Positions 2,550 to 61,655 of a DNA stretch of 64,000 nt are shown here, in pieces. The notes below the pieces were generated by a model that was not told the DNA's origin, ran no database searches, and worked only from the letters and a program-made list of their open reading frames with translations. Origin of the DNA: Escherichia phage vB_EcoM_011D4; the sequence record MT478991.1. One strand, given 5' to 3'. Numbering within the stretch: position 1 is the first letter of the stretch; each line of letters begins with the position of its first letter. A program made the translations under genes and the position numbers.

Positions 2550-2588
2550 TTTATATCCTCTAGTTGATAACCTATAAACCTATATTTA

Positions 2589-2610
2589 TGAAAACGGGGC
2601 TTAACGCCCC
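2589..2610 (-). terminator. rho-independent terminator
   Basis: GGGGCGTTAAGCCCC then GTTTTC. Confidence 0.55.
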
Positions 2611-2615
2611 ATTTA

Positions 2616-2828
2616 TTATAATGCACCATCGAGCAATTGCTCTAAGGTGTATCCTGAATAGTCTTTTTCAATCAGGATATATTTTCCTACTCGTTTAATA
2701 CAACCACGCATTTCAACGTATTCTGCGTAGTTGATGGTACGAGTTGTTCCATCTTCCAGTAATGCAGTACCGATTTCGTTAATGCGGTCATAAGTTACGT
2801 CGGTAATGATGATTTCGATGTTAGCCAT
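2616..2828 (-). CDS. hypothetical protein (70 aa)
   Basis: ORF with ATG, RBS AAGGAG, upstream promoter cassette. Confidence 0.55.
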   Translation of the reverse strand: MANIEIIITDVTYDRINEIGTALLEDGTTRTINYAEYVEMRGCIKRVGKYILIEKDYSGYTLEQLLDGAL

Positions 2829-2864
2829 TTGATACTCCTTAGTAGTTCGTTTCGGTATGGGTGT

Positions 2865-2893
2865 ATTATGATATACACCCTCTGTTATGTCAA
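2865..2893 (-). promoter_or_regulatory. early promoter cassette (TTGACA-17-CATAAT) with conserved leader
   Basis: Hexamers read on minus strand; leader ACACCCATACCGAAACGA then AAGGAG RBS. Confidence 0.55.
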
Positions 2894-2899
2894 CAACTT

Positions 2900-3079
2900 T
2901 TAGAACATTTTTGAAATTAATTCTGCTTTGATTTCGCAGAGAACATCTAAAGATTTCTCGTCACCTGCTTTTGCGGCTTCTGCTTGCATTTTTGAAATGG
3001 CTTCAATGTCAGTGCAATTATAAGCCGCTTGAACTTTAGCGATTGCGATGATTGCCGATTCGATGGTTAATTGTTTCAT
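2900..3079 (-). CDS. hypothetical small protein (59 aa), below ORF-track cutoff
   Basis: Hand translation MKQLTIESAIIAIAKVQAAYNCTDIEAISKMQAEAAKAGDEKSLDVLCEIKAELISKMF; RBS AGGAGAATCAAAC-ATG; own promoter cassette. Confidence 0.45.
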   Translation of the reverse strand: MKQLTIESAIIAIAKVQAAYNCTDIEAISKMQAEAAKAGDEKSLDVLCEIKAELISKMF

Positions 3080-3111
3080 GTTTGATTCTCCTTTCGTTTC
3101 GGTATGGGTGT

Positions 3112-3140
3112 ATTATAGGGGATCGATGATCCCCTGTCAA
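3112..3140 (-). promoter_or_regulatory. early promoter cassette; palindromic spacer GGGGATCATCGATCCCC
   Basis: TTGACA-17-TATAAT on minus strand. Confidence 0.55.
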
Positions 3141-3148
3141 CAAATTTT

Positions 3149-3667
3149 TTAGTTATTTTTTAATTGCTCATCTTGCAATAGGGCAATCACATGCTGGCGA
3201 TGTTCTTCCGATTGAGGCACACCGAAAAAGTTTGTTTTGTAGAAATACTCTAATCGGTCTTCTCGTGTGCTCTCTTCCATCATGATCGCGGGTAGTCCGA
3301 GATTTCGGAAACGTCGCTTTTCTGCTGGCGTAAAATCACTGTAATACAACATAGAATCATCATTACAAGCAATGCTAAACTCATCCTTCATAAAGGAGAA
3401 TATTGCGTTTAAACGCTGTTTACCGTCCACGATTTCGATCTCATAGCGAGAGCCATCATCAATCTTAGCCATTGCGATAGCACCAACCGGAAAATCATTA
3501 ATCAGGTTTTCGATAAACATACGTTTGTTTTCGGTGTCCCATACTAAAGGACGCTGATAATCTGGGTTCATGTTGATATAGCCATCTTCTAACCATGCAT
3601 CATAAACAGAGATGACAAAGTTTTTAGTATTGGTATAGTAACGGCGTTTAGGCGTTAAACGGTTCAT
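3149..3667 (-). CDS. DUF262 / ParB-Srx-like domain protein
   Basis: Motifs NPDYQRPLVW and IVDGKQRL typical of DUF262 (GmrSD N-terminal / ParB-like); start moved to ATG at 3667 with AGGAGA RBS; coupled to upstream gene (TAAcATG). Confidence 0.55.
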   Translation of the reverse strand: MNRLTPKRRYYTNTKNFVISVYDAWLEDGYINMNPDYQRPLVWDTENKRMFIENLINDFPVGAIAMAKIDDGSRYEIEIVDGKQRLNAIFSFMKDEFSIACNDDSMLYYSDFTPAEKRRFRNLGLPAIMMEESTREDRLEYFYKTNFFGVPQSEEHRQHVIALLQDEQLKNN

Positions 3668-4714: not shown

Positions 4715-4956
4715 ATACGACCCTTTAACCCAGCACAGATTTTAGTCGGTTCTTTACCGTGCCACATTAAGTAAATTCCGTTAATGCGTCCTTGTTTTGT
4801 ATATGATTCTTTTCTGATCTTCTTATAGTGTCGTGCTTCCTCCGCCGATTGTTTAGAATGTCGGTCATAAAGGAAGAGGAACAAAGGCCAACCATTAGCG
4901 ACCTTAATGCAGTTATTCAAAAATTCCTTATTTCGTTTAATTAATTTTCTTTTCAC
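4711..4956 (-). CDS. hypothetical basic protein (81 aa)
   Basis: GTG start overlapping upstream stop (GTGA); overlaps downstream start by 4 nt. Confidence 0.45.
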   Translation of the reverse strand: MKRKLIKRNKEFLNNCIKVANGWPLFLFLYDRHSKQSAEEARHYKKIRKESYTKQGRINGIYLMWHGKEPTKICAGLKGRI

Positions 4957-5204
4957 GCTGCCCCCATTGGTTTGATAGTAACCGAATCTAAAAGACCTTT
5001 GTTAGCCAGTTCGCGGCAAGTTTTCAGATCCGCAACTTCCCAGCCAGCCGCAATCAGGTTATCAATGAGGCTGTTAGCAACTTCTTCGCTCATGAAAGAG
5101 CACTGTTTGCCGATGGTGTAGCGCACACGCTGTAATTTCAGTTTACGGAAGCCTTTAACGTTCAGGTCTTTAGCGATTTTCTTTGCGGTTTCGATGTTAG
5201 CCAT
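4953..5204 (-). CDS. hypothetical protein (83 aa)
   Basis: ATG with AGGAGAATCAAACA leader; first gene after promoter cassette at 5245-5273. Confidence 0.55.
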   Translation of the reverse strand: MANIETAKKIAKDLNVKGFRKLKLQRVRYTIGKQCSFMSEEVANSLIDNLIAAGWEVADLKTCRELANKGLLDSVTIKPMGAA

Positions 5205-5244
5205 TGTTTGATTCTCCTAAGTGGTATCTCGTCTTGATGGTTGT

Positions 5245-5273
5245 ATTGTAGGGGAGTTATCCTCCCCTGTCAA
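5245..5273 (-). promoter_or_regulatory. early promoter cassette; palindromic spacer GGGGAGGATAACTCCCC
   Basis: TTGACA-17-TACAAT. Confidence 0.5.
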
Positions 5274-5287
5274 CACTTTTTATAAAA

Positions 5288-5455
5288 TTATTTGTTAATT
5301 TCTGGTGCGTTGCTAGGATAGTAACCTTCTTTAACTCCGAGGTATTTCGCAACCATCCCTACAATCTTCTGTGCTACTACAATGTCAAATTTCAGATAAT
5401 CTTCACCGTAGGTTTCAATGATATATGCTTCACATGCTGCTTTAGTCTCGAACAT
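5288..5455 (-). CDS. hypothetical small protein (55 aa), paralog of 8544-8711
   Basis: Hand translation MFETKAACEAYIIETYGEDYLKFDIVVAQKIVGMVAKYLGVKEGYYPSNAPEINK; about 85 percent nt identity with 8544-8711 by eye. Confidence 0.5.
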   Translation of the reverse strand: MFETKAACEAYIIETYGEDYLKFDIVVAQKIVGMVAKYLGVKEGYYPSNAPEINK

Positions 5456-5488
5456 TTTGATTCTCCTATTTCGTTTCGGTATGTGTGC

Positions 5489-5517
5489 ATTATAGGGGAT
5501 CTCCCGATCCCCGTCAA
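5489..5517 (-). promoter_or_regulatory. early promoter cassette; near-palindromic spacer GGGATCGGGAGATCCCC
   Basis: TTGACG-17-TATAAT. Confidence 0.5.
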
Positions 5518-5530
5518 CAACTTTTTTAAA

Positions 5531-5812
5531 TTATTCGTGATTAGTTTCGATGTTGTGCATTTTGCACCAGTTCAGCCAATCGCCAAGATCTTGATAGTTG
5601 ATGCTTTTATCTGCTGCCATCGTTTTTGTCTTGATACCCATATGTGCGTTATGAGTAAGCATTTTTACAGTGAACTCGATTTTATCGCCTTTAGCTTTAA
5701 CATCAACCAGTTTGGTCCACTGGCTACCAGCGCCGCGAATGTTCATACCAACGATGTTTCCGATGTATGCTTCTTTGTTTTTCAGGATTTCGGTTGCTTT
5801 GATGAATTTCAT
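5531..5812 (-). CDS. hypothetical protein (93 aa)
   Basis: ATG, RBS GGAGAATCAAAA, promoter cassette upstream. Confidence 0.55.
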   Translation of the reverse strand: MKFIKATEILKNKEAYIGNIVGMNIRGAGSQWTKLVDVKAKGDKIEFTVKMLTHNAHMGIKTKTMAADKSINYQDLGDWLNWCKMHNIETNHE

Positions 5813-5844
5813 TTTTGATTCTCCAGTTCGTTTCGGTATGGGTG

Positions 5845-5873
5845 TATTATGCTATGTTCTTACTTTGGTGTCA
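5845..5873 (-). promoter_or_regulatory. early promoter cassette
   Basis: TTGACA-17-CATAAT plus conserved leader. Confidence 0.55.
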
Positions 5874-5881
5874 ACAACTTT

Positions 5882-6151
5882 TTAGATATTTTCAGAAATA
5901 AATTTTAAAACTTGACGTAAATGTTTCTCATCTTTGATAGTCGCCGGAAGTTCTTCTTTTACTTCCTGTGCAAGATAGATATTTCCGTTCCAAGTGAAAG
6001 ATCCGTCTTCGTTTACGAGATAGCTGAACATCCACTCGCAATCATTTTCGATTTCATATACACACAGAAGGGTGTAATCGTTAAAGCTATTGATTTCAAG
6101 GTCGAAGCCGTGACGTTTTGCAAAGTTGGTAGTGGTTTTAGTCAGTGCCAT
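5882..6151 (-). CDS. hypothetical protein (89 aa)
   Basis: ATG, RBS AGGAGAATCAAACA, promoter cassette upstream. Confidence 0.55.
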   Translation of the reverse strand: MALTKTTTNFAKRHGFDLEINSFNDYTLLCVYEIENDCEWMFSYLVNEDGSFTWNGNIYLAQEVKEELPATIKDEKHLRQVLKFISENI

Positions 6152-6191
6152 TGTTTGATTCTCCTAAGTGGTATCTCGTTTCGATGGGTGT

Positions 6192-6220
6192 ATTATGCTA
6201 TAGGCGTGTTCTGGTGTCAA
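6192..6220 (-). promoter_or_regulatory. early promoter cassette
   Basis: TTGACA-17-CATAAT plus conserved leader. Confidence 0.55.
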
Positions 6221-6244
6221 TTCTTTTTTTAAAAAATTTTATGC

Positions 6245-6271
6245 AATAAAAAAGCCGACGCTAAGGTCGGC
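6245..6271 (-). terminator. rho-independent terminator
   Basis: GCCGACCTTAGCGTCGGC then TTTTTTATT. Confidence 0.6.
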
Positions 6272-6279
6272 TAATAAAA

Positions 6280-6591
6280 TCATTTAGACAAATAATCATT
6301 CTGTGCAATCCGGTCGGCGTATGCTGGTGTTACGTCAATCGCAATCACTTTAACGCGTGCTTTCTTGCGACCTGGGTTTTCTCGTAACCAGTGCTCATGA
6401 CCGTGCACATTTTTATACTTTGATGCTTCTTCGAAGGTACGGATCGGACCTGGGTAATCAGCGTAAAGGATCTCTAGATCTTCGGTGATGTAAAAATATA
6501 CATCGTAATTGCTGTTCTCTAGCTTAAGCAGAGACTTTCGGAACATTGGGAGATTTTCGCGGGTAAATTCAAAGATATTATCTTTCATAGT
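6280..6591 (-). CDS. hypothetical protein, paralog family A (HxHW...IAIDV motif)
   Basis: Start moved to ATG at 6591 (RBS GAGGATAATACT); track start 6735 would overlap upstream gene and a terminator. Confidence 0.55.
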   Translation of the reverse strand, partial: TMKDNIFEFTRENLPMFRKSLLKLENSNYDVYFYITEDLEILYADYPGPIRTFEEASKYKNVHGHEHWLRENPGRKKARVKVIAIDVTPAYADRIAQNDYLSK

Positions 6592-14527: not shown

Positions 14528-14731
14528 TTAACCGTATACGCGAAAGTATTCTACTGATCCGTCGCTATACTGTTTTACATTGAATGTATTCACACCATGA
14601 TTATTTCTCATGATGACATATAAACTACGACGTTCATCGCTAAACGGCATAACTGGCGCGGGTTCAATATCAACACTAAAACCACGTTTAGCAAGTGCTT
14701 CGCCTAATTGCTTGATTTTATCGGTAAACAT
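14528..14731 (-). CDS. hypothetical protein (67 aa)
   Basis: ORF between pseT and cd. Confidence 0.5.
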   Translation of the reverse strand: MFTDKIKQLGEALAKRGFSVDIEPAPVMPFSDERRSLYVIMRNNHGVNTFNVKQYSDGSVEYFRVYG

Positions 14732-15609
14732 TAAAAGTCTCCGTAGTTAACCTGAAAACATTCTACACCAATTGAGCGGTACATGTCAACCACTTGATCA
14801 CGATCATCTACTGCCAACACAACATGATAACGCGGTGCAATTTCAGTGAAGAAAATCTCTTTCTTCACTTCATGATCAGGACGACGATCATTAGTTTCAC
14901 GTTGAAAGTGATCACTCGGTTCAATACCCTGTTCACGCAACCATTGCAGAGTATCTTCTTCGCAAACATCCTCACGCCCTGAGCATGTAATGATACGATA
15001 GCCATTATCACGATACAGTTTAAGCATTTCGATCACTTGCGGACGTGGTTTATCTTCTTTGACCTTTGTCCAGTCAAACGGATGACGACCGCCCTTATCC
15101 GCTAATGTTCCATCAATATCAAAGATCACTGCCTTCGGCAGCATGGTATTCGGTTTGTATACTTCTTGACCCATATATTCCTGCATCAGATAAAATTGGT
15201 TACGCAAATGAGAAAGTGGAATTGCTTTCTCACCGCGATAGAAATTACGTTTCTTTAGTGTCTCAAATGATTCATTGAACACTTGTTCAGTATACACCGC
15301 GTTAAATTCTTTTGCAAGTTCTTTGTAGAATACACGATGTTTTTCTTTCAGGTTGGTATCAGAGATAATGATACTCAATCCGCGTGATAGAGTCTCGCGA
15401 GCAATCATTCTCTGAATAGACTCTACCAGCTTTTCCTTTTCCTTAGTATATTTGTATTTCAAAGGTGAGTCAACACCAAACAACATAAGACGAAGATCAT
15501 CACGATTCACATTACGATAATTACTAAACCGTTTACACGTTTCCATAGCCCATGTAGTTTTACCGGACCCAGAACAACCAACGGTTAAAATCACTTCACA
15601 TTTCGGCAT
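14731..15609 (-). CDS. pseT: polynucleotide 5 prime-kinase / 3 prime-phosphatase
   Basis: P-loop GCSGSGKTT; HAD phosphatase motif DIDGTLA; T4 Pnk-like C-terminus VECFQV..GDF. Confidence 0.88.
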   Translation of the reverse strand: MPKCEVILTVGCSGSGKTTWAMETCKRFSNYRNVNRDDLRLMLFGVDSPLKYKYTKEKEKLVESIQRMIARETLSRGLSIIISDTNLKEKHRVFYKELAKEFNAVYTEQVFNESFETLKKRNFYRGEKAIPLSHLRNQFYLMQEYMGQEVYKPNTMLPKAVIFDIDGTLADKGGRHPFDWTKVKEDKPRPQVIEMLKLYRDNGYRIITCSGREDVCEEDTLQWLREQGIEPSDHFQRETNDRRPDHEVKKEIFFTEIAPRYHVVLAVDDRDQVVDMYRSIGVECFQVNYGDF

Positions 15610-16425: not shown

Positions 16426-17595
16426 TTACCAATCAATCTTATCAGCCGGAATCAGTTTCTTATAATTCCGTAGATAGTAAGTTTTCATTGAATCCAGAAT
16501 ACGGTCATAATCAAGACCATCAAATGCAATCATCAGACACATGAAAATATATGCTTGTGCATCACCATGTTTACGTGATTCGATAGTCGCATTTGATGCA
16601 TATGTCTTTCTGTCTTCTCCCGCGTGTGCGTTATAAAATTCTGTTGCTGTCGTGAAGGCATTGCGAAGAATAGACCTGAATGCTTCCTCGAATAGCTCGA
16701 TTCGTTCCAGTGCTTCCGGTTCGCCTTCATATGCAGCACGCAAATCATCGGTTTCGCTTTCTACGACATAGTAGATCAGGTTATTAGGAAACATCGATGT
16801 GTTTTTAATGTTATGCACACCAATATACCATTCACTCTTCACCTTGAACATTTGACCGTCTTTAGTGCGTGCAACAATTCCTTCGATACCTTCTGCGGTC
16901 CGAACTTCATCAAGAATATTGCTAAACCGCGCTGAATCAACTTGTAACGCATTTACCAGATGAGGACGTAGGATTGCATCAGCGAATAGTATTTGATGCG
17001 GTACATACTCTCCTGTGACGTTATGGCGTACATTCAGAAGTGTTAGCGACGGTTCAGAATATTCTACAACAATTCGGTTGCTTGGTGCTGTATATTCAAA
17101 GTTGAAAGTATAATCAGACCCAATATCAGAGATCTTAGCGCGTAGATCTGCATACTTCTCTGAATACAGAAGACCGTTTGCTCTCTCTGCCTGGCTTGAG
17201 TACAAGGCCGCTTTAGACTTCAACTGAACATAGCCGTTATCAATGTATGTGCTTACTAGACTACCGTCCATTTTGTCCATGACCATTTCCACATCTTCCG
17301 GCTTAAAGCGAGCGCGATCATTCTCACCCAAATTAAAAAACTTCTCCATAGGACGAGATGCGATGCGGACCGGACGACCTTTATCGTCAATTTCAAACAT
17401 GATCCCGCGACACTCTAACGCATCTGGTTTATTCCACATTTCCGGTTTGCTCAAGTACAGATAACTAAAAATGCGCATACGGGTTTGCATCGCCGTAATT
17501 TCATCTTTGTAATAGAACGTATCAGATCCGTCACATAGTGCCATAAGATTTTTGAACAATGCTAAAACTTTTTTGTTGTTTTCTTTTGTTGACAT
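16426..17595 (-). CDS. rnlA: RNA ligase 1
   Basis: PDALECRGIMFE, VRIASRPMEKFFNL, EGIVA.. conserved with recalled T4 Rnl1. Confidence 0.88.
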   Translation of the reverse strand: MSTKENNKKVLALFKNLMALCDGSDTFYYKDEITAMQTRMRIFSYLYLSKPEMWNKPDALECRGIMFEIDDKGRPVRIASRPMEKFFNLGENDRARFKPEDVEMVMDKMDGSLVSTYIDNGYVQLKSKAALYSSQAERANGLLYSEKYADLRAKISDIGSDYTFNFEYTAPSNRIVVEYSEPSLTLLNVRHNVTGEYVPHQILFADAILRPHLVNALQVDSARFSNILDEVRTAEGIEGIVARTKDGQMFKVKSEWYIGVHNIKNTSMFPNNLIYYVVESETDDLRAAYEGEPEALERIELFEEAFRSILRNAFTTATEFYNAHAGEDRKTYASNATIESRKHGDAQAYIFMCLMIAFDGLDYDRILDSMKTYYLRNYKKLIPADKIDW

Positions 17596-17992
17596 AATTT
17601 GTGTTCCATTCTGGTTTAAATTTGGTGATCAAAACAGGTTCTTCGATATCGGCAGTGCTTATAATATCCTTACCCGTTGGATTCTCGATGTACAACTCAA
17701 AGCACTGGCGGTAATAGAATGTTACTGTCTTACCTTCCTCTAGCGCCTTATGAATATTCTTACTCTTTCGAGTATCCGCCGTTGGTGTTTGTCTGTTAAT
17801 GCTCGTCCGGTAATAATTGATCCGCTTTCTGAGATTAACAGTCTGACCAATGTATACCAGTTCACCATCAACCGCAATAGCGTAAAGAACATTTAAACGG
17901 TTCTTCTGAGGCGGTAAAATCACATCACCATCTTTACACTCTAAACATGAATATTTAACGAATCCATAGTTTTCTATTAGCTCATTAATCAT
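17531..17992 (-). CDS. denA: endonuclease II (GIY-YIG)
   Basis: VLYAIAVDGELVYIGQTVNLRKRINYYRT matches recalled T4 DenA; overlaps rnlA start by 65 nt. Confidence 0.8.
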   Translation of the reverse strand: MINELIENYGFVKYSCLECKDGDVILPPQKNRLNVLYAIAVDGELVYIGQTVNLRKRINYYRTSINRQTPTADTRKSKNIHKALEEGKTVTFYYRQCFELYIENPTGKDIISTADIEEPVLITKFKPEWNTNYVNKRKQQKSFSIVQKSYGTM

Positions 17993-18009
17993 TATCCTTT
18001 CCTCACGTC

Positions 18010-18035
18010 ACAACAAAGGCGGGATTTCTCCCGCC
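18010..18035 (-). terminator. rho-independent terminator
   Basis: GGCGGGAGAAATCCCGCC then TTTGTTG. Confidence 0.5.
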
Positions 18036-18042
18036 CACCTTA

Positions 18043-18441
18043 TTAACTTTCCAGAATATCGCGAGCTTCGTTACGCTCCTTGATGATTTTCAGGATAAAT
18101 TCCAGTTTTTCTTTGTTCAGTGTCCCGTTTTCCATTGCCTCTTTGACGGTGAACACTCCGCCACCTTGCCCGTATACAGTGACAGTGATTTCACCTAACA
18201 TCGTGGTATGAAAACCGCCAATTTTCGGTGATTCGAAAGAAACAATTACCTCGCGAACAGTATTACCGTCGTTGATTTCTGAGAGGGTAATGTCGTTTTT
18301 GTAGGCGGTTGCTTTAACCATACGGATCAGCATAGTCTGATCTGGGGAGATGGTCATTTTGTCCATTGCATGTTGCAATGCAGCGTAACCGAAAACTTTA
18401 ACGAAGTCCAGAACATCTTTGCGAGTTTGAAATTTAATCAT
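18043..18441 (-). CDS. hypothetical protein (132 aa)
   Basis: ATG, RBS AAGGAG; promoter cassette upstream; terminator hairpin downstream. Confidence 0.55.
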   Translation of the reverse strand: MIKFQTRKDVLDFVKVFGYAALQHAMDKMTISPDQTMLIRMVKATAYKNDITLSEINDGNTVREVIVSFESPKIGGFHTTMLGEITVTVYGQGGGVFTVKEAMENGTLNKEKLEFILKIIKERNEARDILES

Positions 18442-18474
18442 CTTGATACTCCTTAGTTGTTTTGGTATGGGAGT

Positions 18475-18503
18475 ATCTTACTACTCCCGTGATATACTGT
18501 CAA
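18475..18503 (-). promoter_or_regulatory. early promoter cassette; hairpin across -10
   Basis: TTGACA-17-TAAGAT. Confidence 0.5.
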
Positions 18504-18511
18504 CTGCTTTT

Positions 18512-18661
18512 TTATGCAACCGCAAACATCAACATTTGAACATTCTTGGCTGTATGGCTTTCAAAGTTCTGACATTCTTTGATAATGTCCTCTACTTTCT
18601 CGCCGGAGATCTCCGCGTAAGTTTCGATTGCCATTTTCAGTACCGCGTCAAAGTTGTTCAT
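18512..18661 (-). CDS. hypothetical small protein (49 aa), below ORF-track cutoff
   Basis: Hand translation MNNFDAVLKMAIETYAEISGEKVEDIIKECQNFESHTAKNVQMLMFAVA; promoter cassette upstream. Confidence 0.4.
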   Translation of the reverse strand: MNNFDAVLKMAIETYAEISGEKVEDIIKECQNFESHTAKNVQMLMFAVA

Positions 18662-18699
18662 TTGATTCTCCTTAAAGTGTATTTCGTTTCGATGGGGGT

Positions 18700-18728
18700 A
18701 TATTACTACCCCCGTTTCATGCTGTCAA
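18700..18728 (-). promoter_or_regulatory. early promoter cassette; hairpin GGGGGTAGTAATATACCCCC across -10
   Basis: TTGACA-17-TAATAT. Confidence 0.5.
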
Positions 18729-18947
18729 CTACTTTTTAATGACAAGTTCAAATTTTGCTACTTTGCGTCCGCGTTTATTGAAAGCCACCCACGGACGGTT
18801 TTCAATGTAGAACAACTCTTCACCTATAATGAATACTGGCTGATTGTAAAGGCGACCCATCAGGTCACGCTGGCGAATGGTAGTAGATTCGTATACTTCG
18901 CCTACTACAAAGTGTTTGCTGATAGAGTCGGTGCAAGTAAATTTCAT
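18729..18947 (-). CDS. hypothetical protein (72 aa)
   Basis: Start moved to ATG at 18947 (RBS AGGAGAATCAAA); promoter cassette upstream. Confidence 0.5.
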   Translation of the reverse strand: MKFTCTDSISKHFVVGEVYESTTIRQRDLMGRLYNQPVFIIGEELFYIENRPWVAFNKRGRKVAKFELVIKK

Positions 18948-18980
18948 TTTGATTCTCCTTTGTTTCGTTTCGATGGGAGT

Positions 18981-19009
18981 ATTATGCAATACTCCCTAAT
19001 GTGTGTCAA
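18981..19009 (-). promoter_or_regulatory. early promoter cassette; hairpin across -10
   Basis: TTGACA-17-CATAAT. Confidence 0.5.
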
Positions 19010-19180
19010 CTGCCTTTTTGAAAGTTTTCTGCTTTTCTTAGGTGAAATTTCGAGGAATAAAAATTAAAGTCTTCCTCTTTCACGATACTAATTGACGTTG
19101 CAAGGTTTTCGTCCCAATGGTTGATGATATAGAGATTTCCTTCCGCTCTAAAATACCAACGTTGTTCTTTCATGTTCACC

Positions 19181-19348
19181 TCTTAGCTAAACCAGATTTT
19201 ACCATCGTTAGATACTTCGCAGATCAGGCGATTGCGCCATGTGCAGAAGTAAACACGTCCGAATTTACCTTCACCTGCATCGTGCTCGAAAGTAACGCCT
19301 TTGTTTTTCTTAGCCATGTTGCAAGCCTGACGATAAGTTAAAGTTTTC
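19181..19348 (-). CDS. hypothetical small protein (55 aa), below ORF-track cutoff
   Basis: Hand translation MKTLTYRQACNMAKKNKGVTFEHDAGEGKFGRVYFCTWRNRLICEVSNDGKIWFS; promoter cassette upstream. Confidence 0.4.
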
Positions 19349-19381
19349 ATTTGATTCTCCTTAAAGTGTGTTTCGATGTGC

Positions 19382-19411
19382 GTATTATGCTATGACAAGA
19401 TCCGATTGTCA
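19382..19411 (-). promoter_or_regulatory. early promoter cassette
   Basis: TTGACA-17-CATAAT. Confidence 0.5.
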
Positions 19412-19459
19412 ACAGCCAATAACAAAAAAGTCGCCACTATGGGCGACTTTGAACAAACA

Positions 19460-19936
19460 TTAATCATGACCGTGATTTGCAATATCCGCTCGCGTCTTAT
19501 CTTTGTGATTTCCTACGTCAAAGACACGATAACCATTTTCACGCAAAACTTTAATCACTTCTGGGTTATCCTCAAAGACTCCGACAACTTCATCTTTATC
19601 AAAGGATTTAATTACCTCTAATTTGATGTGATAGTCTTTACGGGAATCGGTACGGCCTCTCATAAAGATTTTATCAAAACACACCCCGTTAGAAATTAAC
19701 CAATCAATTGTTTCCATGTAAGCATGTGAACTTCGTCCGGTGAGGATGTAAATCAAATGCCCGTTGTCGGAAAGAGCATTAATAACACGAATTACATCGT
19801 AAATGGGGGAATCTCCCCCACATGCCTTGTTATATTCGACCCATGACTCGACTTTATCAAGATTTTCGGTTGGCATCTTTGCTAGTCGATGTGTTGGATC
19901 TGTGATCGTAAAATCTAAATCGACAAAATATATCAT
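19460..19936 (-). CDS. HAD-superfamily phosphatase, paralog of the PseT 3 prime-phosphatase domain
   Basis: DLDFT, YILTGRS, FEDNPE motifs parallel DIDGT, ITCSGRE, VDDRDQ of the pseT product in this window. Confidence 0.55.
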   Translation of the reverse strand: MIYFVDLDFTITDPTHRLAKMPTENLDKVESWVEYNKACGGDSPIYDVIRVINALSDNGHLIYILTGRSSHAYMETIDWLISNGVCFDKIFMRGRTDSRKDYHIKLEVIKSFDKDEVVGVFEDNPEVIKVLRENGYRVFDVGNHKDKTRADIANHGHD

Positions 19937-21093
19937 AGATATTTCCCGAATCGGTTGTAGTCATTGTCTGTTAAATCGGTATTAACCTGAGATACCAGAT
20001 ACATAATCTCTACTTCCTGCGCTGCATTCTGTACTTCGTCAGAGTTCAACCATTTACGCATCCACGGTAACGGATGACGACGAACACTAAACGGGCTTTT
20101 CAGTCCGGCAGCACGCATACGGGAATCTGCCAGGTATTCTACATAGGTTTTCAGAATTTCCGGTGACAGGTTAGGAATTGCCCCCATTGCGAATAGGTGG
20201 TCTACCCATTCTTTTTCTTGCTCGACAACATCCAGAAAGATTTTCGTTGCTTCGCCTTCAAGTTCTTCCGCAATCTGTTTCCACTCATCACCATCAACCC
20301 CCGTTTGCCATTGACGAATAATGTATTGTGTGCCTTTTAAGTGAAGTTGTTCATCACGCGCAATAAATTTCATGATCTTCGCGTTACCTTCCAGTAAACC
20401 ACGTTCGGCAAAGCTGAAAGTACATGCAAATGACACATAAAAACGAATTGCTTCCAGTGCATTTACGCAGTGTGCACACAGATAAATCGAAGCCATCAGA
20501 TCTCGTTTTGTGTCTTCAAAAAATCTTCTTGCATCATCTAATGCTGTCTGATCGTCTCGTTCTTCCCAATAGCGGAGTTCTTCTTTTGCATTCTCATACT
20601 TACGAATCCAATAAAGAACATCATCATAATATTGCCCGATAGATTCCGCTCGCTTCATGATAGCAGGGTTATCGATGATCTGGTCGAACTCACTAGCCGG
20701 ATCAATGAAACAGTTACGCATAATGTGTGTATAGCTTCGGCTATGAATCGTTTCGCTGAATGTCCATGTTTGCAACCATGTATCGAGAGTTGGATCAGAT
20801 ACAATTGGACCAAATGCTGCGGACGGTGCGCGACCTTGAATAGAATCAAGTAATGTCTGATACTTCAAGTTTTCAGTAAAGAAACGCTTTTCAACGTCAC
20901 CCATATTAAGATATTGAATGCGGTCGGTTGCAAGTGAAATTTCTTCGGGGCGCCAGAAAAATGACAATTGCTTTTCGATCAGTTCTTCAAATACTTGATG
21001 ACGCTGAATATCATAGCGAGCGATACCCAACCCACTACCCAGAAACATTGGTTCGTTCATAATATCAACATGTTCGCGGTTAAATACGCTCAT
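19933..21093 (-). CDS. nrdB: ribonucleotide reductase small (beta) subunit
   Basis: 386 aa; di-iron ligand regions (EAIRFYVSF, RDEQLH); synteny next to nrdA. Confidence 0.88.
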   Translation of the reverse strand: MSVFNREHVDIMNEPMFLGSGLGIARYDIQRHQVFEELIEKQLSFFWRPEEISLATDRIQYLNMGDVEKRFFTENLKYQTLLDSIQGRAPSAAFGPIVSDPTLDTWLQTWTFSETIHSRSYTHIMRNCFIDPASEFDQIIDNPAIMKRAESIGQYYDDVLYWIRKYENAKEELRYWEERDDQTALDDARRFFEDTKRDLMASIYLCAHCVNALEAIRFYVSFACTFSFAERGLLEGNAKIMKFIARDEQLHLKGTQYIIRQWQTGVDGDEWKQIAEELEGEATKIFLDVVEQEKEWVDHLFAMGAIPNLSPEILKTYVEYLADSRMRAAGLKSPFSVRRHPLPWMRKWLNSDEVQNAAQEVEIMYLVSQVNTDLTDNDYNRFGKYL

Positions 21094-21108: not shown

Positions 21109-21276
21109 TCACTTTTTAACACAAAAGAACTTAGTATTTCTGTTAACTTCGCTATCCTGCTGCAATTCCTGCACAGCTTCAAAACAATTTTGATGTGATG
21201 AAAACTCTACGCTGGTAACAGTTCCTTTATTATATGATCCTACGCTAACGGAAAGCAATAACCATAATGTAGCCAT
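21109..21276 (-). CDS. small hydrophobic-N-terminus protein (55 aa), paralog E1
   Basis: Hand translation MATLWLLLSVSVGSYNKGTVTSVEFSSHQNCFEAVQELQQDSEVNRNTKFFCVKK; TAATG coupling to upstream gene. Confidence 0.4.
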   Translation of the reverse strand: MATLWLLLSVSVGSYNKGTVTSVEFSSHQNCFEAVQELQQDSEVNRNTKFFCVKK

Positions 21277-21449
21277 TAGTTCACCTTTTGTTTTTCAACG
21301 CAATATAGATTCATAAAGCGTTTATTGTCTTCACGGATAATCTCGCGAGCTTTAACGCAATCCTGCTTTGTGGAAAATTCAATGCTTGACATATTTCCGT
21401 AATTATACATTGAATTGCTTATTGCAATCAATAACCATACAGTAGCCAT
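21276..21449 (-). CDS. small hydrophobic-N-terminus protein (57 aa), paralog E2
   Basis: Hand translation MATVWLLIAISNSMYNYGNMSSIEFSTKQDCVKAREIIREDNKRFMNLYCVEKQKVN; TAATG coupling. Confidence 0.4.
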   Translation of the reverse strand: MATVWLLIAISNSMYNYGNMSSIEFSTKQDCVKAREIIREDNKRFMNLYCVEKQKVN

Positions 21450-21684: not shown

Positions 21685-23928
21685 TTACAGCTTGCAAGAT
21701 GAGCACTCGCTAGCGTCTTCCGTACCATCAGCACCATCACGCACGTTAGCGTAATACAGGGTTTTCAGACCGTAATATTGAGCAAACAGCATATCATCTA
21801 ACACATCAGCAATATCGACTTTACCAGTCTTATAAGTGCTTGGATCATAGGATGTATTGGAACTAATCGCCTGATCTACAAACTTCTGCATGATCGCTGC
21901 CAGTGTCAGATAGGGCTTGTTACCTTTCTTGATCAGTGTCCAAAGCAGGTCAATAACATCAGCATTATTCTCTACGTTCGGAATAACCTGATTAAATTGC
22001 CCTTCTTTCGATCCTTTAACCGATACAATCCCGCGAGGCGGTTCAATACCATTTGTGCTGTTAGACACCTGAGAGGACGACTCACAAGGCATCAGCGCCG
22101 ACAGTGTACTGTTACGAATGCCATATTTTTTCAGGTCTTCGCGCAGTTCTTCCCAATCCATCTCATACACCGGATCAACCAGTTCATCTACTGTCTTTTT
22201 GTACCAGTCGATAGGAAGTTCACCGCGACCATAGCGTGTTTCGTGCATCAGTTCGCAAGCACCCTTCTCTTTAGCCAGTCGCACACTAGCCTTAATCAGA
22301 GCATATTGCAAGCGTTCAAACGTTTTATGCGTAAACTCGTTAGCGTCTTCATATGTGAAGAAATTATCTGCTAGATATGATGCAAAGTTAGTAACACCAA
22401 CACCCAGAGAGCGACGTTTTTTGGCTGTCAGAGCTTGTTCTACAGGATAATCCTGATAATCTAACAGGTTGTCAAGTGCACGCACCATAACCATAGCAAT
22501 GCGTTCTACTTCTTCCATATTTTCGATATCGAAATTACCTAAAACATATGCTGCCAAAGTACATAGGCTAATTTCTGAATCATCCCGACCCATCGGTTTA
22601 GTAGGCAGTGCAATTTCACAACACAGGTTAGATTGTTTAATCGGTGCTACATTACGAATAAACGCCCCATGATTGTTCATGTTGTCTGTGAACGTTGGGT
22701 AGATTCGACCAGTGTTAAAACGTTCAATTGCCACCGCTAAAAACAGGTCTTCGGCTTTAACACGAGTTTTACGAACACTCGGATCTTTTTCCAGTTTTTC
22801 GTAAAGCTGGCGGAAACCTTCCTCATCTCGGAAGTACAGATCCCACAACAAGCCACCCGCAACATCTGGACTAAACAGAGTAATGTAATCCCGTTTAAGG
22901 AATCGCTCTACCATCAGGTTATTAATCTGTACGCCGTAATCAAGATGACGAATGCGGTTATCTTCCACCCCCTTATTGTTCTTCAACACAATCAGACTTT
23001 CAAACTCTAAATGCCACATTGGGTAATAGAGAGTCGCCGCCCCGCCACGAATACCGCCTTGTGAGCATGACTTAACGGCAGTCTGAAAATGTTTCCAGAA
23101 TGGGATAACGCCAGTATGACGAACTTCACCATGCCCGATCTTAGATCCTTCCGCGCGAATCATACCAGCATTGATACCGATACCAGCACGCTTACTAATA
23201 TACTTGATGATTGCATTTGCTGTTTCGTTGATGCCCTGCAATGAGTCATCACTTTCAATAACCACACACGAACTAAATTGTCGTGTCGGGGTACGCACAC
23301 CCGCCATAATCGGAGTAGGCAGAGAGATTTGCTTATTCGCAACAGCATTATAAAAATCAATCACATGTTCAAGTCGATTTTCTGTCTCTTCTTGATGCAA
23401 GCACATACCGATCAGCATATACGCAAATTGCGGTGTTTCAATGATTTTCTTAGTGCTGCGATCCTGAACAAGATATTTCTCTTTTAACTGCATCGCACCA
23501 GCGTAGGTCATTTTAAAATCAAGTTTATGATCGATGAATTTCTCCAGATATTCCACTTCTTCGCGGGAATACTTTTGCAGAATTTCGCGATCATATTTTC
23601 CGGTTGCAATATTACGCTCAATATGGCTATAAAAATCAATCGGTTGGAATTGACCGTATACTGATTTACGAAGCGCGAACATTGCAAGGTTACTTGCTAC
23701 ATATTGATAATCAGGTGTTTCTACAGTAATGTTATCTGCGGCGACCTTAATCAATACTTTCTGGATATCATTGGTAGACATACCTTCTGTCAGAAGTGGT
23801 TCAACCATATCAAACAATTCATATGGATCAACGTTATGACCTTCGGCTGCCGCTTCCAGAATTTTCATTACTTTTTCTTTTTCAAACGGAACAGTCAGAC
23901 CGGAAGACTTAACAACATTTTTAATCAT
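21685..23928 (-). CDS. nrdA: ribonucleotide reductase large (alpha) subunit
   Basis: 747 aa; ATP-cone N-terminus; catalytic-site regions (NLCCEI, PCESS); synteny. Confidence 0.9.
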   Translation of the reverse strand: MIKNVVKSSGLTVPFEKEKVMKILEAAAEGHNVDPYELFDMVEPLLTEGMSTNDIQKVLIKVAADNITVETPDYQYVASNLAMFALRKSVYGQFQPIDFYSHIERNIATGKYDREILQKYSREEVEYLEKFIDHKLDFKMTYAGAMQLKEKYLVQDRSTKKIIETPQFAYMLIGMCLHQEETENRLEHVIDFYNAVANKQISLPTPIMAGVRTPTRQFSSCVVIESDDSLQGINETANAIIKYISKRAGIGINAGMIRAEGSKIGHGEVRHTGVIPFWKHFQTAVKSCSQGGIRGGAATLYYPMWHLEFESLIVLKNNKGVEDNRIRHLDYGVQINNLMVERFLKRDYITLFSPDVAGGLLWDLYFRDEEGFRQLYEKLEKDPSVRKTRVKAEDLFLAVAIERFNTGRIYPTFTDNMNNHGAFIRNVAPIKQSNLCCEIALPTKPMGRDDSEISLCTLAAYVLGNFDIENMEEVERIAMVMVRALDNLLDYQDYPVEQALTAKKRRSLGVGVTNFASYLADNFFTYEDANEFTHKTFERLQYALIKASVRLAKEKGACELMHETRYGRGELPIDWYKKTVDELVDPVYEMDWEELREDLKKYGIRNSTLSALMPCESSSQVSNSTNGIEPPRGIVSVKGSKEGQFNQVIPNVENNADVIDLLWTLIKKGNKPYLTLAAIMQKFVDQAISSNTSYDPSTYKTGKVDIADVLDDMLFAQYYGLKTLYYANVRDGADGTEDASECSSCKL

Positions 23929-24756: not shown

Positions 24757-24797
24757 TATACTATTCCTCATAAATGGGGGCTTTCGCCCCCTTTGTT
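24757..24797 (-). repeat. direct repeat with GGGGGCGAAAGCCCCC hairpin, right flank of methyltransferase pseudogene
   Basis: About 35-bp match to the copy at 23957-23997. Confidence 0.5.
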
Positions 24798-26029
24798 TAT
24801 ACTGCCATTTGAGCGGTGATCGCTGGATGGCTTTGATAGTTGTGGATTTTAAAGTCTTTCGGAGTCTTTGTCAATACCTCATCTAAAGATTTAAATTCCG
24901 GCAACTCAATTGTTGGTTTATCAAACGGAACACGGCTTAACTGTTCCATAACTTGATCAAAATGGTTTTTGTAAATGTGAGTATCTCCACCAGAGAAAAT
25001 CAGTTCTCCTACCTCAAGATCACACATTTTCGCTATGATGTGAGTTAACAGCGCATAGCTGGCAACATTAAAGGGCAAGCCCAAAAAGCTGTCTACGCTT
25101 CGCTGAAACCACATACAAGATAGTTTACCTTCATTGACGTAGAATTGCACGAAAGGATGACATACACCTAATACAGCATTATGTGTTCCTTGTACGTTCC
25201 ATGCGTCAATGATAATACGTCTATTATACGGATCATTCTTGATTAAGTCAATCACGTTTTGTAACTGGTCTTCCCAAATCTTCGGGCGATAGACATATTC
25301 TTCATCGTCTTTAGTGCTTGATGTGTCTACGTCCATACTAACAAAGATCGTGGTATCCGGTGCTATAATATCCCCACCCAGATAATCACTATCAAGCAGA
25401 TAACCGAAATAACCATCATCTACCCATTCCTGGAATCCCCACAAGCAATATGCATCATTAACAAAATTAGATTGGGTCTTCCAGTGATCTGCTACTAAGA
25501 ATTGATTATATTCAGAATCAAACTCTTCATAACGCATACCACGCCAGATAGCACATAAACGGTCTTCTGTTTCATTGGTTGGCGTAAAGTCTTCTACCCA
25601 CGGGTGTTTAAATGTATGTGTATATTTGCTATTAACGCGCTTAATTTTGATTTCACCATGTGGATGAATCGGTTTGCGTCGCCACGCCATACCATACATA
25701 TTGCCGACATTATAACCATTGAATCGCAAAGGATTCTTTTCTTTCATATCAAGACAGTTACCGCGCCAAATGTCAAAGGCTTCTTCGTCAAACTTACCGC
25801 GTGTAATTTCCTGTAAGCGACGGCGGTCAAGTGATCCTTCCATAAACCATAGCAACTCGCCAATTACAGAGGCTGTAGCCATCTTTTTAGTAGTCAGTAA
25901 GGGGAAACCCTTGCTTAAATCAATTCGCATCTCTGCACCGAATTTAGAGAGCGTACCGACCCCCGTGCGGTCTTCACGAGGCCAGCCATTATCAAGAACA
26001 TCACGCAACAGTTTCAAATATTCTTTCAT
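24797..26029 (-). CDS. td: thymidylate synthase with a large internal insertion
   Basis: N-terminal EDRTGVGT, catalytic core LGVCHPFVQFY, C-terminal HPAI..AV; 410 aa vs about 286 aa recalled for T4 Td; no intron (continuous frame). Confidence 0.85.
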   Translation of the reverse strand: MKEYLKLLRDVLDNGWPREDRTGVGTLSKFGAEMRIDLSKGFPLLTTKKMATASVIGELLWFMEGSLDRRRLQEITRGKFDEEAFDIWRGNCLDMKEKNPLRFNGYNVGNMYGMAWRRKPIHPHGEIKIKRVNSKYTHTFKHPWVEDFTPTNETEDRLCAIWRGMRYEEFDSEYNQFLVADHWKTQSNFVNDAYCLWGFQEWVDDGYFGYLLDSDYLGGDIIAPDTTIFVSMDVDTSSTKDDEEYVYRPKIWEDQLQNVIDLIKNDPYNRRIIIDAWNVQGTHNAVLGVCHPFVQFYVNEGKLSCMWFQRSVDSFLGLPFNVASYALLTHIIAKMCDLEVGELIFSGGDTHIYKNHFDQVMEQLSRVPFDKPTIELPEFKSLDEVLTKTPKDFKIHNYQSHPAITAQMAV

Positions 26030-61122: not shown

Positions 61123-61641
61123 TTAGTAGCCGCGTTCTTGACGGGCGAAATTTTCAGCATTTTTCAGGTAGTACAGAATAAAGAGTTCTTGAGCGTCAAT
61201 ACCAAGCGGGATCATCTTTGACAGAATGAAGTGGACCGCGTCCACAAATTCAAATTTCACTTCAAGCTGATCTTCTGGTGACAGTTCAGAGAATTTACGC
61301 GCTCGCGCTTCCCCGTGGTTCTTTTTCCACATTTTCCAGATTGCACTTGCATCTTTACCATTGGACATTCCACCCAGCGATGTGTAAAGCTCTCGTGTTT
61401 CGTCTGCGATAGCGTCATCCATCCGTTGCATCCAATCCAGCATTTCACCGCAAGTCTCTAGCTTAGTTGGATTTGGGACCCAATCAAATTTTTCGGATAG
61501 TGCAACCTGCAAACCAGTTTGCATTTCTAGCATCACCTGAAACGGATCTTTACCTTCTGCAATCGCGTGATGATATGCGGCAATAGCCGCGTTAATATCT
61601 TTTTCGTTAACCAGACCAGCACAAGAATTAAATTCTGACAT
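61123..61641 (-). CDS. 56: dCTP pyrophosphatase (dCTPase)
   Basis: C-terminal region SPEDQLEVKFEFVDAVHFIL..LYYLKNAENFARQERGY matches recalled T4 gp56; start at ATG 61641. Confidence 0.85.
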   Translation of the reverse strand: MSEFNSCAGLVNEKDINAAIAAYHHAIAEGKDPFQVMLEMQTGLQVALSEKFDWVPNPTKLETCGEMLDWMQRMDDAIADETRELYTSLGGMSNGKDASAIWKMWKKNHGEARARKFSELSPEDQLEVKFEFVDAVHFILSKMIPLGIDAQELFILYYLKNAENFARQERGY

Positions 61642-61655
61642 ATTCACCTCATTAA

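Follow-up and report, generated by a model that had tools for sequence, protein, structure and literature searches.

Escherichia phage vB_EcoM_011D4 (sequence record MT478991.1) carries two genes for PNKP-type phosphatases within the 64,000 nucleotides analysed here, a stretch referred to as the window. One encodes PseT, which is both a 5'-kinase and a 3'-phosphatase. The other encodes a stand-alone phosphatase of 158 amino acids and begins at the very end of nrdB, the gene of the ribonucleotide reductase small subunit. The locus raises the question of where the second phosphatase came from and on what it acts in a genome that already has an intact PseT. An earlier account made from the letters only (the sequence-only reading) had described the protein as a paralog of the PseT phosphatase domain and as either a second nucleic acid 3'-phosphatase or a deoxynucleoside monophosphate (dNMP) nucleotidase. 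The evidence tilts to a role in deoxynucleotide supply. The protein is read here as a PNKP-type phosphatase that would clear phosphomonoesters from DNA breakdown products, serving deoxynucleotide supply and not RNA repair. This reading is tentative, with a probability of roughly 0.45 and an inferred substrate.

Family, fold and catalytic residues

The two genes and the predicted active-site residues of the stand-alone phosphatase are located in the window as follows.

19460-19936, minus strand: open reading frame (ORF) with an ATG start, stand-alone HAD (DxDxT) phosphatase of the PNKP phosphatase-domain family, 158 amino acids, orthologue of RB49p229
14731-15609, minus strand: pseT, bifunctional 5'-kinase/3'-phosphatase, 292 amino acids, Pfam AAA_33 and HAD_PNKP; partner for comparison, outside the element itself
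19907-19921, minus strand: HAD motif I, DLDFT, with D6 (predicted nucleophile), D8 (predicted general acid/base) and T10; invariant in stand-alone and bifunctional proteins and in Dmp of phage T5; roles taken from T4 Asp165 and Asp167 (PMC3592404)
19886-19888, minus strand: R17, aligned with T4 Pnkp R176, a family-specific arginine just past motif I
19811-19813, minus strand: D42, aligned with T4 D187; invariant in 50 of 50 family members aligned
19733-19741, minus strand: HAD motif II, T66-G-R68, aligned with T4 S211 and R213; Ser211 contacts phosphate in T4 (PMC3592404)
19622-19660, minus strand: R93-G-R-T-D97-S-R99-K-D101-Y-H-I-K105, the PNKP-specific RxxxDxRxD block followed by the motif III lysine, aligned with T4 R246, D250, R252, D254 and K258; role of Lys258 from PMC3592404
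19568-19573, minus strand: HAD motif IV, E122-D123, aligned with T4 D277-D278; D278 is a Mg2+ ligand in T4 (PMC3592404)

The ORF is as the sequence-only reading described it. The protein matched the Pfam family HAD_PNKP (PF25109) with 50.7 bits against a curated cut-off of 27.6 (E 2.8e-13) and PHROG 415 (phrog_415) with an E value of 4.4e-51. The class B acid phosphatase family PF03767 scored 26.8 bits, just under its cut-off of 27. The 5'(3')-deoxyribonucleotidase NT5C was not among the ten Pfam families listed at E <= 1. For a 95% identical homologue (P0001) the precomputed Pfam list has both PF25109 and PF03767. No kinase family was matched in the Pfam search and no P-loop-like motif was found in the 158 residues, in agreement with the lack of a kinase P-loop noted earlier. 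Upstream of the ATG the stop-to-stop frame is only eight codons longer. A kinase domain hidden by a mis-called start is therefore impossible.

Seven sequences were aligned: the 158-residue protein, T1 ST64, the protein of Klebsiella phage VAC6, a bifunctional Pnkp of a subtype other than that of PseT, the PseT of the window, T4 Pnkp and T5 Dmp. Thirteen positions are invariant, namely D6, D8, T10, R17, P22, D42, R68, R93, D97, D101, K105, D123 and G135. The T4 equivalents, numbered from the alignment to the T4 Pnkp structure 1LTQ, are in the same order D165, D167, T169, R176, P178, D187, R213, R246, D250, D254, K258, D278 and G290. In T4 Pnkp Asp165 is the nucleophile and Asp167 the general acid/base, Ser211 and Lys258 touch the phosphate, and Asp165 and Asp278 bind Mg2+ (PMC3592404). 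In the proposed mechanism D6 would attack the phosphate to form an aspartyl-phosphate, with D8 as general acid/base. The phosphate would be contacted by T66 and K105 and Mg2+ bound by D123 with E122, within a shell of R17, D42, R68, R93, D97 and D101. Mg2+-dependent hydrolysis of phosphomonoesters through an Asp6-phosphate intermediate can thus safely be predicted.

An AlphaFold2 model built with 50 homologues had a mean predicted local distance difference test (pLDDT) score of 94. Its strands and helices alternate in a Rossmannoid alpha/beta core. A small helical insert follows motif I and no large cap is present. A single-sequence phmmer search of the PDB gave a marginal match to Pnkp1 (E 0.011) and missed T4 Pnkp, so that profiles and structure comparison were needed. 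Foldseek returned 63 PDB matches at E <= 0.001, and the best 50 of the 63 were nearly all HAD-fold enzymes. The top matches were Pnkp1 4XRP (E 4e-8) and the T4 Pnkp phosphatase 5UJ0/1LTQ, with query-normalised template modelling (TM) scores of about 0.7. Class B/C acid phosphatases and nucleotidases formed a second tier. With motifs I-IV and the modelled core fold present, the protein is a member of the HAD (DxDxT) superfamily.

Pnkp1 of the bacterial Pnkp1-Rnl-Hen1 complex has the HAD_PNKP fold and was the best PDB match by sequence as well as by structure. It is bifunctional and works inside a ligase/methyltransferase complex, whereas no such partners are linked to the phosphatase gene. T4 Pnkp (1LTQ, 2IA5, 5UJ0) has in common with the phosphatase the HAD_PNKP family, the fold, every catalytic and family-specific residue and the expected aspartyl-phosphate/Mg2+ chemistry. 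The N-terminal P-loop kinase of T4 Pnkp is missing from the phosphatase, which is hence no polynucleotide kinase and would lack the kinase-kinase interface of the tetramer. The segment from motif I to D42 is about 14 residues longer than in T4 Pnkp and a C-terminal HG tail is added. Identity to T4-type domains is only 23-28%, and in the genome the phosphatase is partnered by nrdB instead of rnlA.

The second tier of structural matches could indicate a substrate other than a nucleotide (a sugar phosphate, phosphoprotein or lipid) or a non-catalytic binding protein. The near match to the class B acid phosphatase family fits such a reading, as do sub-threshold Pfam matches to NIF and LNS2 and a match to phrog_1238 'phosphoheptose isomerase' (1e-11). 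Class B/C acid phosphatases and nucleotidases (AphA, e(P4)) have a DDDD-type HAD core in common with the phosphatase and hydrolyse 5'- and 3'-mononucleotides. They are secreted or periplasmic, larger, equipped with oligomerisation and cap elements, and only 14-16% identical to the phosphatase. The catalytic residues of the phosphatase are all intact and PNKP is its best-scoring family by far. Every recurrent neighbour of the gene in its relatives is an enzyme of DNA or nucleotide metabolism. A non-nucleotide substrate or a binding role is very unlikely on these grounds.

Relation to PseT and origin of the gene

PseT was the only significant match to the phosphatase among window ORFs of at least 60 amino acids (phmmer E 2.6e-9). 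PseT itself consists of an AAA_33 kinase domain and a HAD_PNKP domain (Pfam, 1.1e-52) and matches T4 Pnkp 1LTQ with an E value of 1.5e-69. Pairwise alignment by BLASTP placed the 158-residue protein on the C-terminal half of PseT with 28% identity over 102 amino acids (E 2e-10). The motif pairs listed in the sequence-only reading all align in register (DLDFT with DIDGT, ILTGRS with ITCSGRE, DWLISNGV with QWLREQGI and FEDNPE with VDDRDQ). The similarity extends beyond the generic HAD motifs, as R17, P22, D42, R68, R93, D97 and D101 are invariant and the HAD_PNKP cut-off is passed.

The window comes from a Krischvirus, an RB49-like member of the Straboviridae. Identity over the 4-kb region was 98.9% with phage ELT4 and about 98% with RB49, Phi1 and further genomes of the genus. 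About 58 records carry the phosphatase at 95% identity or more. Codon differences between Krischvirus orthologues were 14-17 synonymous against 6-7 non-synonymous. The motifs, including the unusual Phe of DLDFT, are all retained in an orthologue of only 81% identity. Judged from these comparisons the phosphatase gene is under purifying selection in Krischviruses.

A HMMER search of 1.8 billion representative proteins gave 4,557 relatives at E <= 1e-3. The best 150 of these were mostly stand-alone proteins of 140-170 amino acids, with bifunctional Pnkps of about 300 amino acids interspersed. Matches were present in 1,267 records of annotated phage genomes. The best matches outside Krischvirus were in T1-like Drexlerviridae (siphophages), with 43-48% identity over the full length. 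T1-like phage proteins were also the top matches among viral predicted structures (TM 0.91-0.94). A word-indexed protein search returned near-identical Krischvirus proteins only. The T1-like stand-alone genes (T1 ST64, TLS Gp09, Jk06 JK_61P; PHROG 415) are named 'polynucleotide kinase' or 'acid phosphatase'. They belong to the same clade as the Krischvirus gene, with 34-48% identity over the full length. The proteins of both groups are kinase-less, have about 160 amino acids and carry an insert past motif I and a D(I/L)x(N/S)HG tail. Motif I reads DLDFT in the Krischvirus protein and DLDGT in the T1-like phages.

Two subtypes of bifunctional Pnkp were distinguished. The T4 type, to which the PseT of the window belongs, has a short 'GRxP(Y/F)DW' past motif I. 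The other has a longer 'HRLH...W..F..AC..D.P' segment that is common to the stand-alone proteins. In profile-profile comparison (hhalign) the stand-alone proteins matched the HRLH-type bifunctionals with an E value of 1e-58 (score 337) and the T4-type phosphatase domains with 2.6e-43 (score 250). A neighbour-joining tree of 74 domains placed the phosphatase in a stand-alone clade with T1 ST64, VAC6, PPWS2 gp34 and two kinase-fusion proteins. Of 100 neighbour-joining bootstraps, 95 left the T4-type Pnkps and 91 the HRLH-type bifunctionals outside the clade of the phosphatase and T1 ST64. The phosphatase was grouped with its own PseT in none of the 100. A long HRL...W..(Y/F)N.AC..D insert is present in the phosphatase and in the T1-like clade, and PseT is without it.

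The earlier description of the protein as a paralog of the PseT phosphatase domain stands in part. It is a kinase-less homologue of that domain, as indicated by the HAD_PNKP match, the profile comparison with T4-type domains and the Foldseek matches to 4XRP and 5UJ0. It is not a copy of the pseT of this genome. A recent duplication of the phosphatase half of pseT with loss of the kinase would agree with the common Pfam family and with the position of the two genes, about 4 kb apart on the same strand. Identity to PseT is low compared with that to the T1-like proteins (about 47%), and the HRL insert and C-terminal tail of the T1-like clade are both missing from PseT. Together with the bootstrap result these observations effectively refute an origin as a pseT duplicate. 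The simplest history is gene transfer into the Krischvirus lineage, by which the phosphatase would be a horizontally acquired xenologue from a separate stand-alone clade.

The C-terminal tail has the form (R/x)xD(I/L)x(N/S)HG(V/H)(D/E) and covers residues 142-158 approximately (19460-19513, minus strand). It reads ADIANHGHD here and EDLNSHGVD in T1. T4 Pnkp, like PseT, does not have it. The pLDDT of the tail is about 70, and in the fusion proteins it stands directly before the kinase linker.

The gene and its family are already known. They are publicly annotated in RB49-like genomes and catalogued as PF25109 and PHROG 415. The orthologue RB49p229 is annotated as 'polynucleotide kinase' in the RB49 RefSeq record, and labels in other records are '3'-phosphatase', '3'-phosphatase, 5'-polynucleotide kinase' and 'hypothetical protein'. 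The name 'polynucleotide kinase' is wrong because the P-loop 5'-kinase domain is absent. Going by the sequences, it is a misnomer for the whole stand-alone clade.

Genomic context and possible role

The phosphatase gene ends a string of genes with the following features.

19933-21093, minus strand: nrdB, ribonucleotide reductase small subunit, 386 amino acids, directly upstream of the phosphatase gene and in the same orientation
21685-23928, minus strand: nrdA, ribonucleotide reductase large subunit, first gene of the string
19933-19936, minus strand: ATGA overlap of the phosphatase start codon and the nrdB stop codon, read from the sequence
19420-19450, minus strand: intrinsic-terminator-like hairpin with a 9-bp stem and a T-run, from a terminator scan and RNA fold

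The gene order is nrdA, three small ORFs, nrdB and the phosphatase, which is the last cistron and is followed by the terminator. Translational coupling of the phosphatase to nrdB is implied because the start and stop codons overlap as ATGA. The hairpin (19450-19420) lies 10 nucleotides past the phosphatase stop codon and had a predicted folding energy of -17.7 kcal/mol (z-score -3.0). The sigma-70-like promoter of the next small gene lies past the hairpin at 19412-19384. By prediction the hairpin closes the nrdA-nrdB-phosphatase transcription unit. The wider order is lig, cd, pseT, rnlA, denA, several small ORFs, phosphatase, nrdB, nrdA, td and frd, which is a T4-type nucleotide cluster. The gene thus sits between the denA side and nrdB-nrdA-td-frd, and its earlier placement in a nucleotide-metabolism cluster was correct.

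Two tandem paralogous small ORFs lie between nrdA and nrdB at 21109-21276 and 21276-21449 (minus strand), encoding 55 and 57 amino acids. They are 40% identical (E 2e-16). Both begin with MAT(L/V)WLL and have a hydrophobic N-terminus, and they are hypothetical in RB49.

Gene neighbours of the relatives were surveyed by fetching 80 viral loci with an alignment query, calling ORFs and clustering the neighbours. Counts are given over 86 loci. A P-loop protein of about 190 amino acids, PHROG 139 'deoxynucleoside monophosphate kinase', was encoded within 6 kb in 32 of the 86. It is directly downstream of the HAD gene in VAC6 and in locus L047, and in VAC6 the kinase start overlaps the HAD stop. The HAD-kinase pairs lie at 2513-3573 of locus L087 and 4944-6530 of locus L002. 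In T1 the HAD gene and the PHROG 139 kinase gene have only an HNH endonuclease gene between them. The HAD and kinase annotations abut in many GenBank records of Webervirus, Kagunavirus-like phages and Aeromonas podophages. Two metagenomic proteins, P0008 (403 amino acids) and P0019 (461 amino acids), are fusions of an N-terminal HAD domain and a C-terminal PHROG 139 kinase-like P-loop domain.

A metallophosphoesterase of about 375 amino acids, PHROG 704 'DNA repair exonuclease' (PHROG 221 in PPWS2), was present in 24 of the 86 loci. Its gene was directly upstream of the HAD gene wherever gene order was inspected; Klebsiella phage VAC6 has exonuclease-like metallophosphoesterase, HAD and dNMP kinase in this order. 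A dATP/dGTP pyrophosphohydrolase-like protein (PF18909) is encoded directly downstream in PPWS2-type podophages. The order exonuclease, 'PNK', dNMP kinase across Drexlerviridae has been described in an independent 2026 paper, which proposed a role in nucleotide supply (PMC13164509). T1 and TLS break down the DNA of their host and recycle the nucleotides (PMC11447400).

The PHROG 704 protein of VAC6 (L087, 1345-2475) had no Pfam Metallophos match and only an N-terminal helix-turn-helix resembling sigma-70 region 4. Its putative assignment as a nuclease comes solely from PHROG remote homology.

The T1-like gene stands after the metallophosphoesterase and before the dNMP kinase, whereas the Krischvirus gene stands at the 3' end of nrdB. 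The kinase is nearby in T1-like phages. In Krischvirus the dNMP kinase (gene 1) is about 70 kb from the phosphatase in RB49 coordinates, where it lies at 61485-62141. No kinase of the phrog_139 or gp1 type was found in the window.

A role in deoxynucleotide supply is favoured over RNA repair because of the coupling to nrdB, the fusion or adjacency to dNMP kinases, the exonuclease and deoxynucleoside triphosphate (dNTP) pyrophosphohydrolase neighbours, the link to T5 Dmp and the complete PseT and RnlA encoded in the genome. The most likely substrates would be 3'-phosphates on DNA ends, oligonucleotides, 3'-dNMPs or pdNp. The T4 Pnkp phosphatase also hydrolyses a mononucleotide, 3'-dTMP (PMC3592404). 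A T4-like 3'-phosphatase specificity is favoured because the similarity to real Pnkp phosphatase domains is far stronger than that to Dmp. With the phosphates removed, exonucleases, dNMP kinase and ribonucleotide reductase could provide the dNTPs that phage replication needs.

Several points weigh against deoxynucleotide supply. The gene may be coupled to nrdB simply because it was inserted into a hyperplastic region. The context is heterogeneous outside the enterobacterial phages; helicases, RecT, thymidylate synthase and uracil-DNA glycosylase are among the other neighbours there. Most of the 30-36 sequence groups surveyed lacked a nearby dNMP kinase. Pfam and PHROG enrichment among 133 neighbouring proteins found no universal partner, and context was informative only among relatives from enterobacterial phages. 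The literature search found no biochemical report on any member of the stand-alone clade, and the substrate assignment is therefore an inference. We know of no phage or host nuclease here that makes 3'-phosphorylated DNA.

The uncertain identity of the PHROG 139 protein as a dNMP kinase is also a point against this role. The protein had no match in NCBIfam, only a sub-threshold match in Pfam and only generic P-loop matches in phmmer and profile searches of the PDB. With hhalign it matched T4 gp1 (sequence verified as 1DEK) at 52.9% probability (E 1.4e-4) over the N-terminal 74 columns only. The putative identity derives from the PHROG name, this weak gp1 match and a preprint on kinases of related phages. 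According to the preprint, dNMPs are phosphorylated by phage 'DNKs', which also trigger the Kongming defence (bioRxiv 10.1101/2024.12.20.629578). One of them has a catalytic Lys15, the same position as in the PHROG 139 family, and others are from the Drexlerviridae phages vB_KpnS-VAC2 and KarlJaspers (same preprint).

An ATP-dependent DNA ligase adjoins the gene in two lineages, and this fits DNA end repair equally well. The phosphatase would then be a second end-healing enzyme, a 3'-phosphatase or 2',3'-cyclic phosphodiesterase that restores the 3'-OH on tRNA or other RNA together with RnlA, or on DNA together with ligase. It would back up PseT, or extend it, against host anticodon nucleases or other nucleases. 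The highest sequence and structure similarity is to bifunctional Pnkp phosphatase domains, including that of Pnkp1-Rnl-Hen1, and the 'DNA repair exonuclease' is a neighbour in many relatives. The rnlA and pseT genes are about 2-5 kb from the phosphatase gene in the window. The modelled fold, with its small helical insert and no large cap, is also in keeping with end healing. HAD members without a large cap typically act on macromolecules. The activity would be redundant, as PseT has its own phosphatase domain, and the coupling is to nrdB and not to rnlA or pseT. In relatives the HAD domain is fused to dNMP kinases and not to polynucleotide kinases or ligases. To our knowledge the T1-like phages, its closest relatives, have no RNA ligase or 5'-kinase partner. 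End healing is considered unlikely.

The other alternative concerns Dmp of phage T5, an experimentally proven 5'-dNMP phosphatase. By destroying deoxyadenosine monophosphate (dAMP) Dmp counters Kongming, and it also remodels dNTP pools together with NrdAB; Dmp genes co-occur with phage dNMP kinases (bioRxiv 10.1101/2024.12.20.629578; PMC12265719). T5 Dmp (244 amino acids; L088, 124-858) aligned to the stand-alone profile over about 140 columns (hhalign probability 83.7-93.3%, E 8e-6 to 2.8e-7). A Dmp family profile was built from homologues and compared by hhalign with three PNKP-type groups. The probability was 93% for the stand-alone clade (E 2.8e-7, score 50), 66% for the HRLH-type bifunctionals and 5% for the T4 type. 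In these profile comparisons no other PNKP-type group came as near to Dmp as the stand-alone clade, and the relationship is remote. T5 Dmp retains all 13 invariant PNKP residues. Since it is a 5'-dNMP phosphatase, a 3'-polynucleotide phosphatase and a 5'-dNMPase cannot be told apart by these signature residues as aligned.

Both T5 Dmp and the phosphatase are stand-alone phage HAD proteins with the 13 residues, including HR past motif I and AC..D, and both are tied to dNMP kinase and NrdAB. T5 Dmp differs in its 244 amino acids, large insertions, C-terminal extension and Pfam family (PF26880). Its gene is pre-early, with expression ahead of the kinase, and 5'-dNMPs are its proven substrates. 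T5 Dmp had no match in the local Pfam copy, which was without PF26880.

The phosphatase could accordingly be a Dmp-like 5'-deoxynucleotidase that converts 5'-dNMPs, or some of them such as deoxyinosine monophosphate (dIMP), deoxyuridine monophosphate (dUMP) or N6-methyl-dAMP (m6-dAMP), to deoxynucleosides. It would remodel the pools with ribonucleotide reductase and dNMP kinase and could blunt nucleotide-sensing immunity, as T5 Dmp does with Kongming. The nearness of the clade to Dmp, the common residues, the kinase fusions and adjacency, the coupling to nrdB and the gene 1 dNMP kinase of RB49 are consistent with this activity. The similarity to Dmp is remote, with an hhalign score of 50, whereas bona fide Pnkp phosphatase domains reach 250-337. 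Dmp family PF26880 is not listed for the close homologue P0001, which has PF25109 and PF03767. Dmp was also not among the top 50 viral structural matches of the phosphatase model. If a 5'-dNMPase were co-translated with or fused to a dNMP kinase, the two would have to differ in specificity to avoid a futile cycle; in T5, Dmp and the kinase are kept apart in time (bioRxiv 10.1101/2024.12.20.629578). A Dmp-like activity is thus possible, though doubtful.

A wider speculation, put forward with low confidence, is that phrog_415 phosphatases in general act not in end healing but at the deoxynucleotide level, as a unit with dNMP kinases and ribonucleotide reductase. They would bridge Pnkp domains to T5 Dmp. 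They might help phages evade immunity that senses or exploits dNMP pools, such as Kongming signalling by deoxyinosine triphosphate (dITP), Clover and PUA-Cal-HAD sensing of m6-dAMP. Evasion could proceed by selective destruction of the signal precursors dIMP, m6-dAMP or dAMP.

The gene is an ordinary one, annotated in every RB49-like genome and with its family in more than 1,200 sequenced phages. Mildly new are its probable origin as a xenologue in the T1-like stand-alone clade, the repeated association of that clade with dNMP kinases and the place of the clade between Pnkp phosphatase domains and T5 Dmp. The clade is repeatedly tied to deoxynucleotide-supply enzymes (exonuclease, dNMP kinase, dNTP pyrophosphohydrolase and here nrdB). 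Its nearness to T5 Dmp links it to an enzyme recently shown to be both pool-remodelling and an anti-defence factor. If dNMPs were its substrates, a very widespread phage gene would gain a role in the phage-host contest over nucleotide pools, and the PNKP signature residues would be shown not to predict 3' versus 5' specificity.

Other observations in the window

The td ORF (thymidylate synthase, 24797-26029, minus strand) encodes 410 amino acids and matched ThyA structures in two stretches. The best-scoring stretch aligned residues 254-410 with residues 110-264 of Escherichia coli ThyA. An in-frame insertion of about 135 amino acids in the middle of the enzyme is implied, and its translation had no obvious intein signature.

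The denA gene (GIY-YIG endonuclease II, 17531-17992, minus strand) overlaps rnlA (16426-17595, minus strand) by 65 nucleotides, at 17531-17595. The overlap is annotated likewise in RB49. Either the rnlA start is mis-called or the two genes truly overlap.

The stretch of small ORFs from denA to the phosphatase gene, at about 18000-19460, differs among Krischviruses. Coverage of the 4-kb query was 90% in two pieces for RB49 and most relatives and 100% for ELT4 and E26. Several of the small genes in this stretch have their own sigma-70-like promoters, of the form TTGACA-17-CATAAT.

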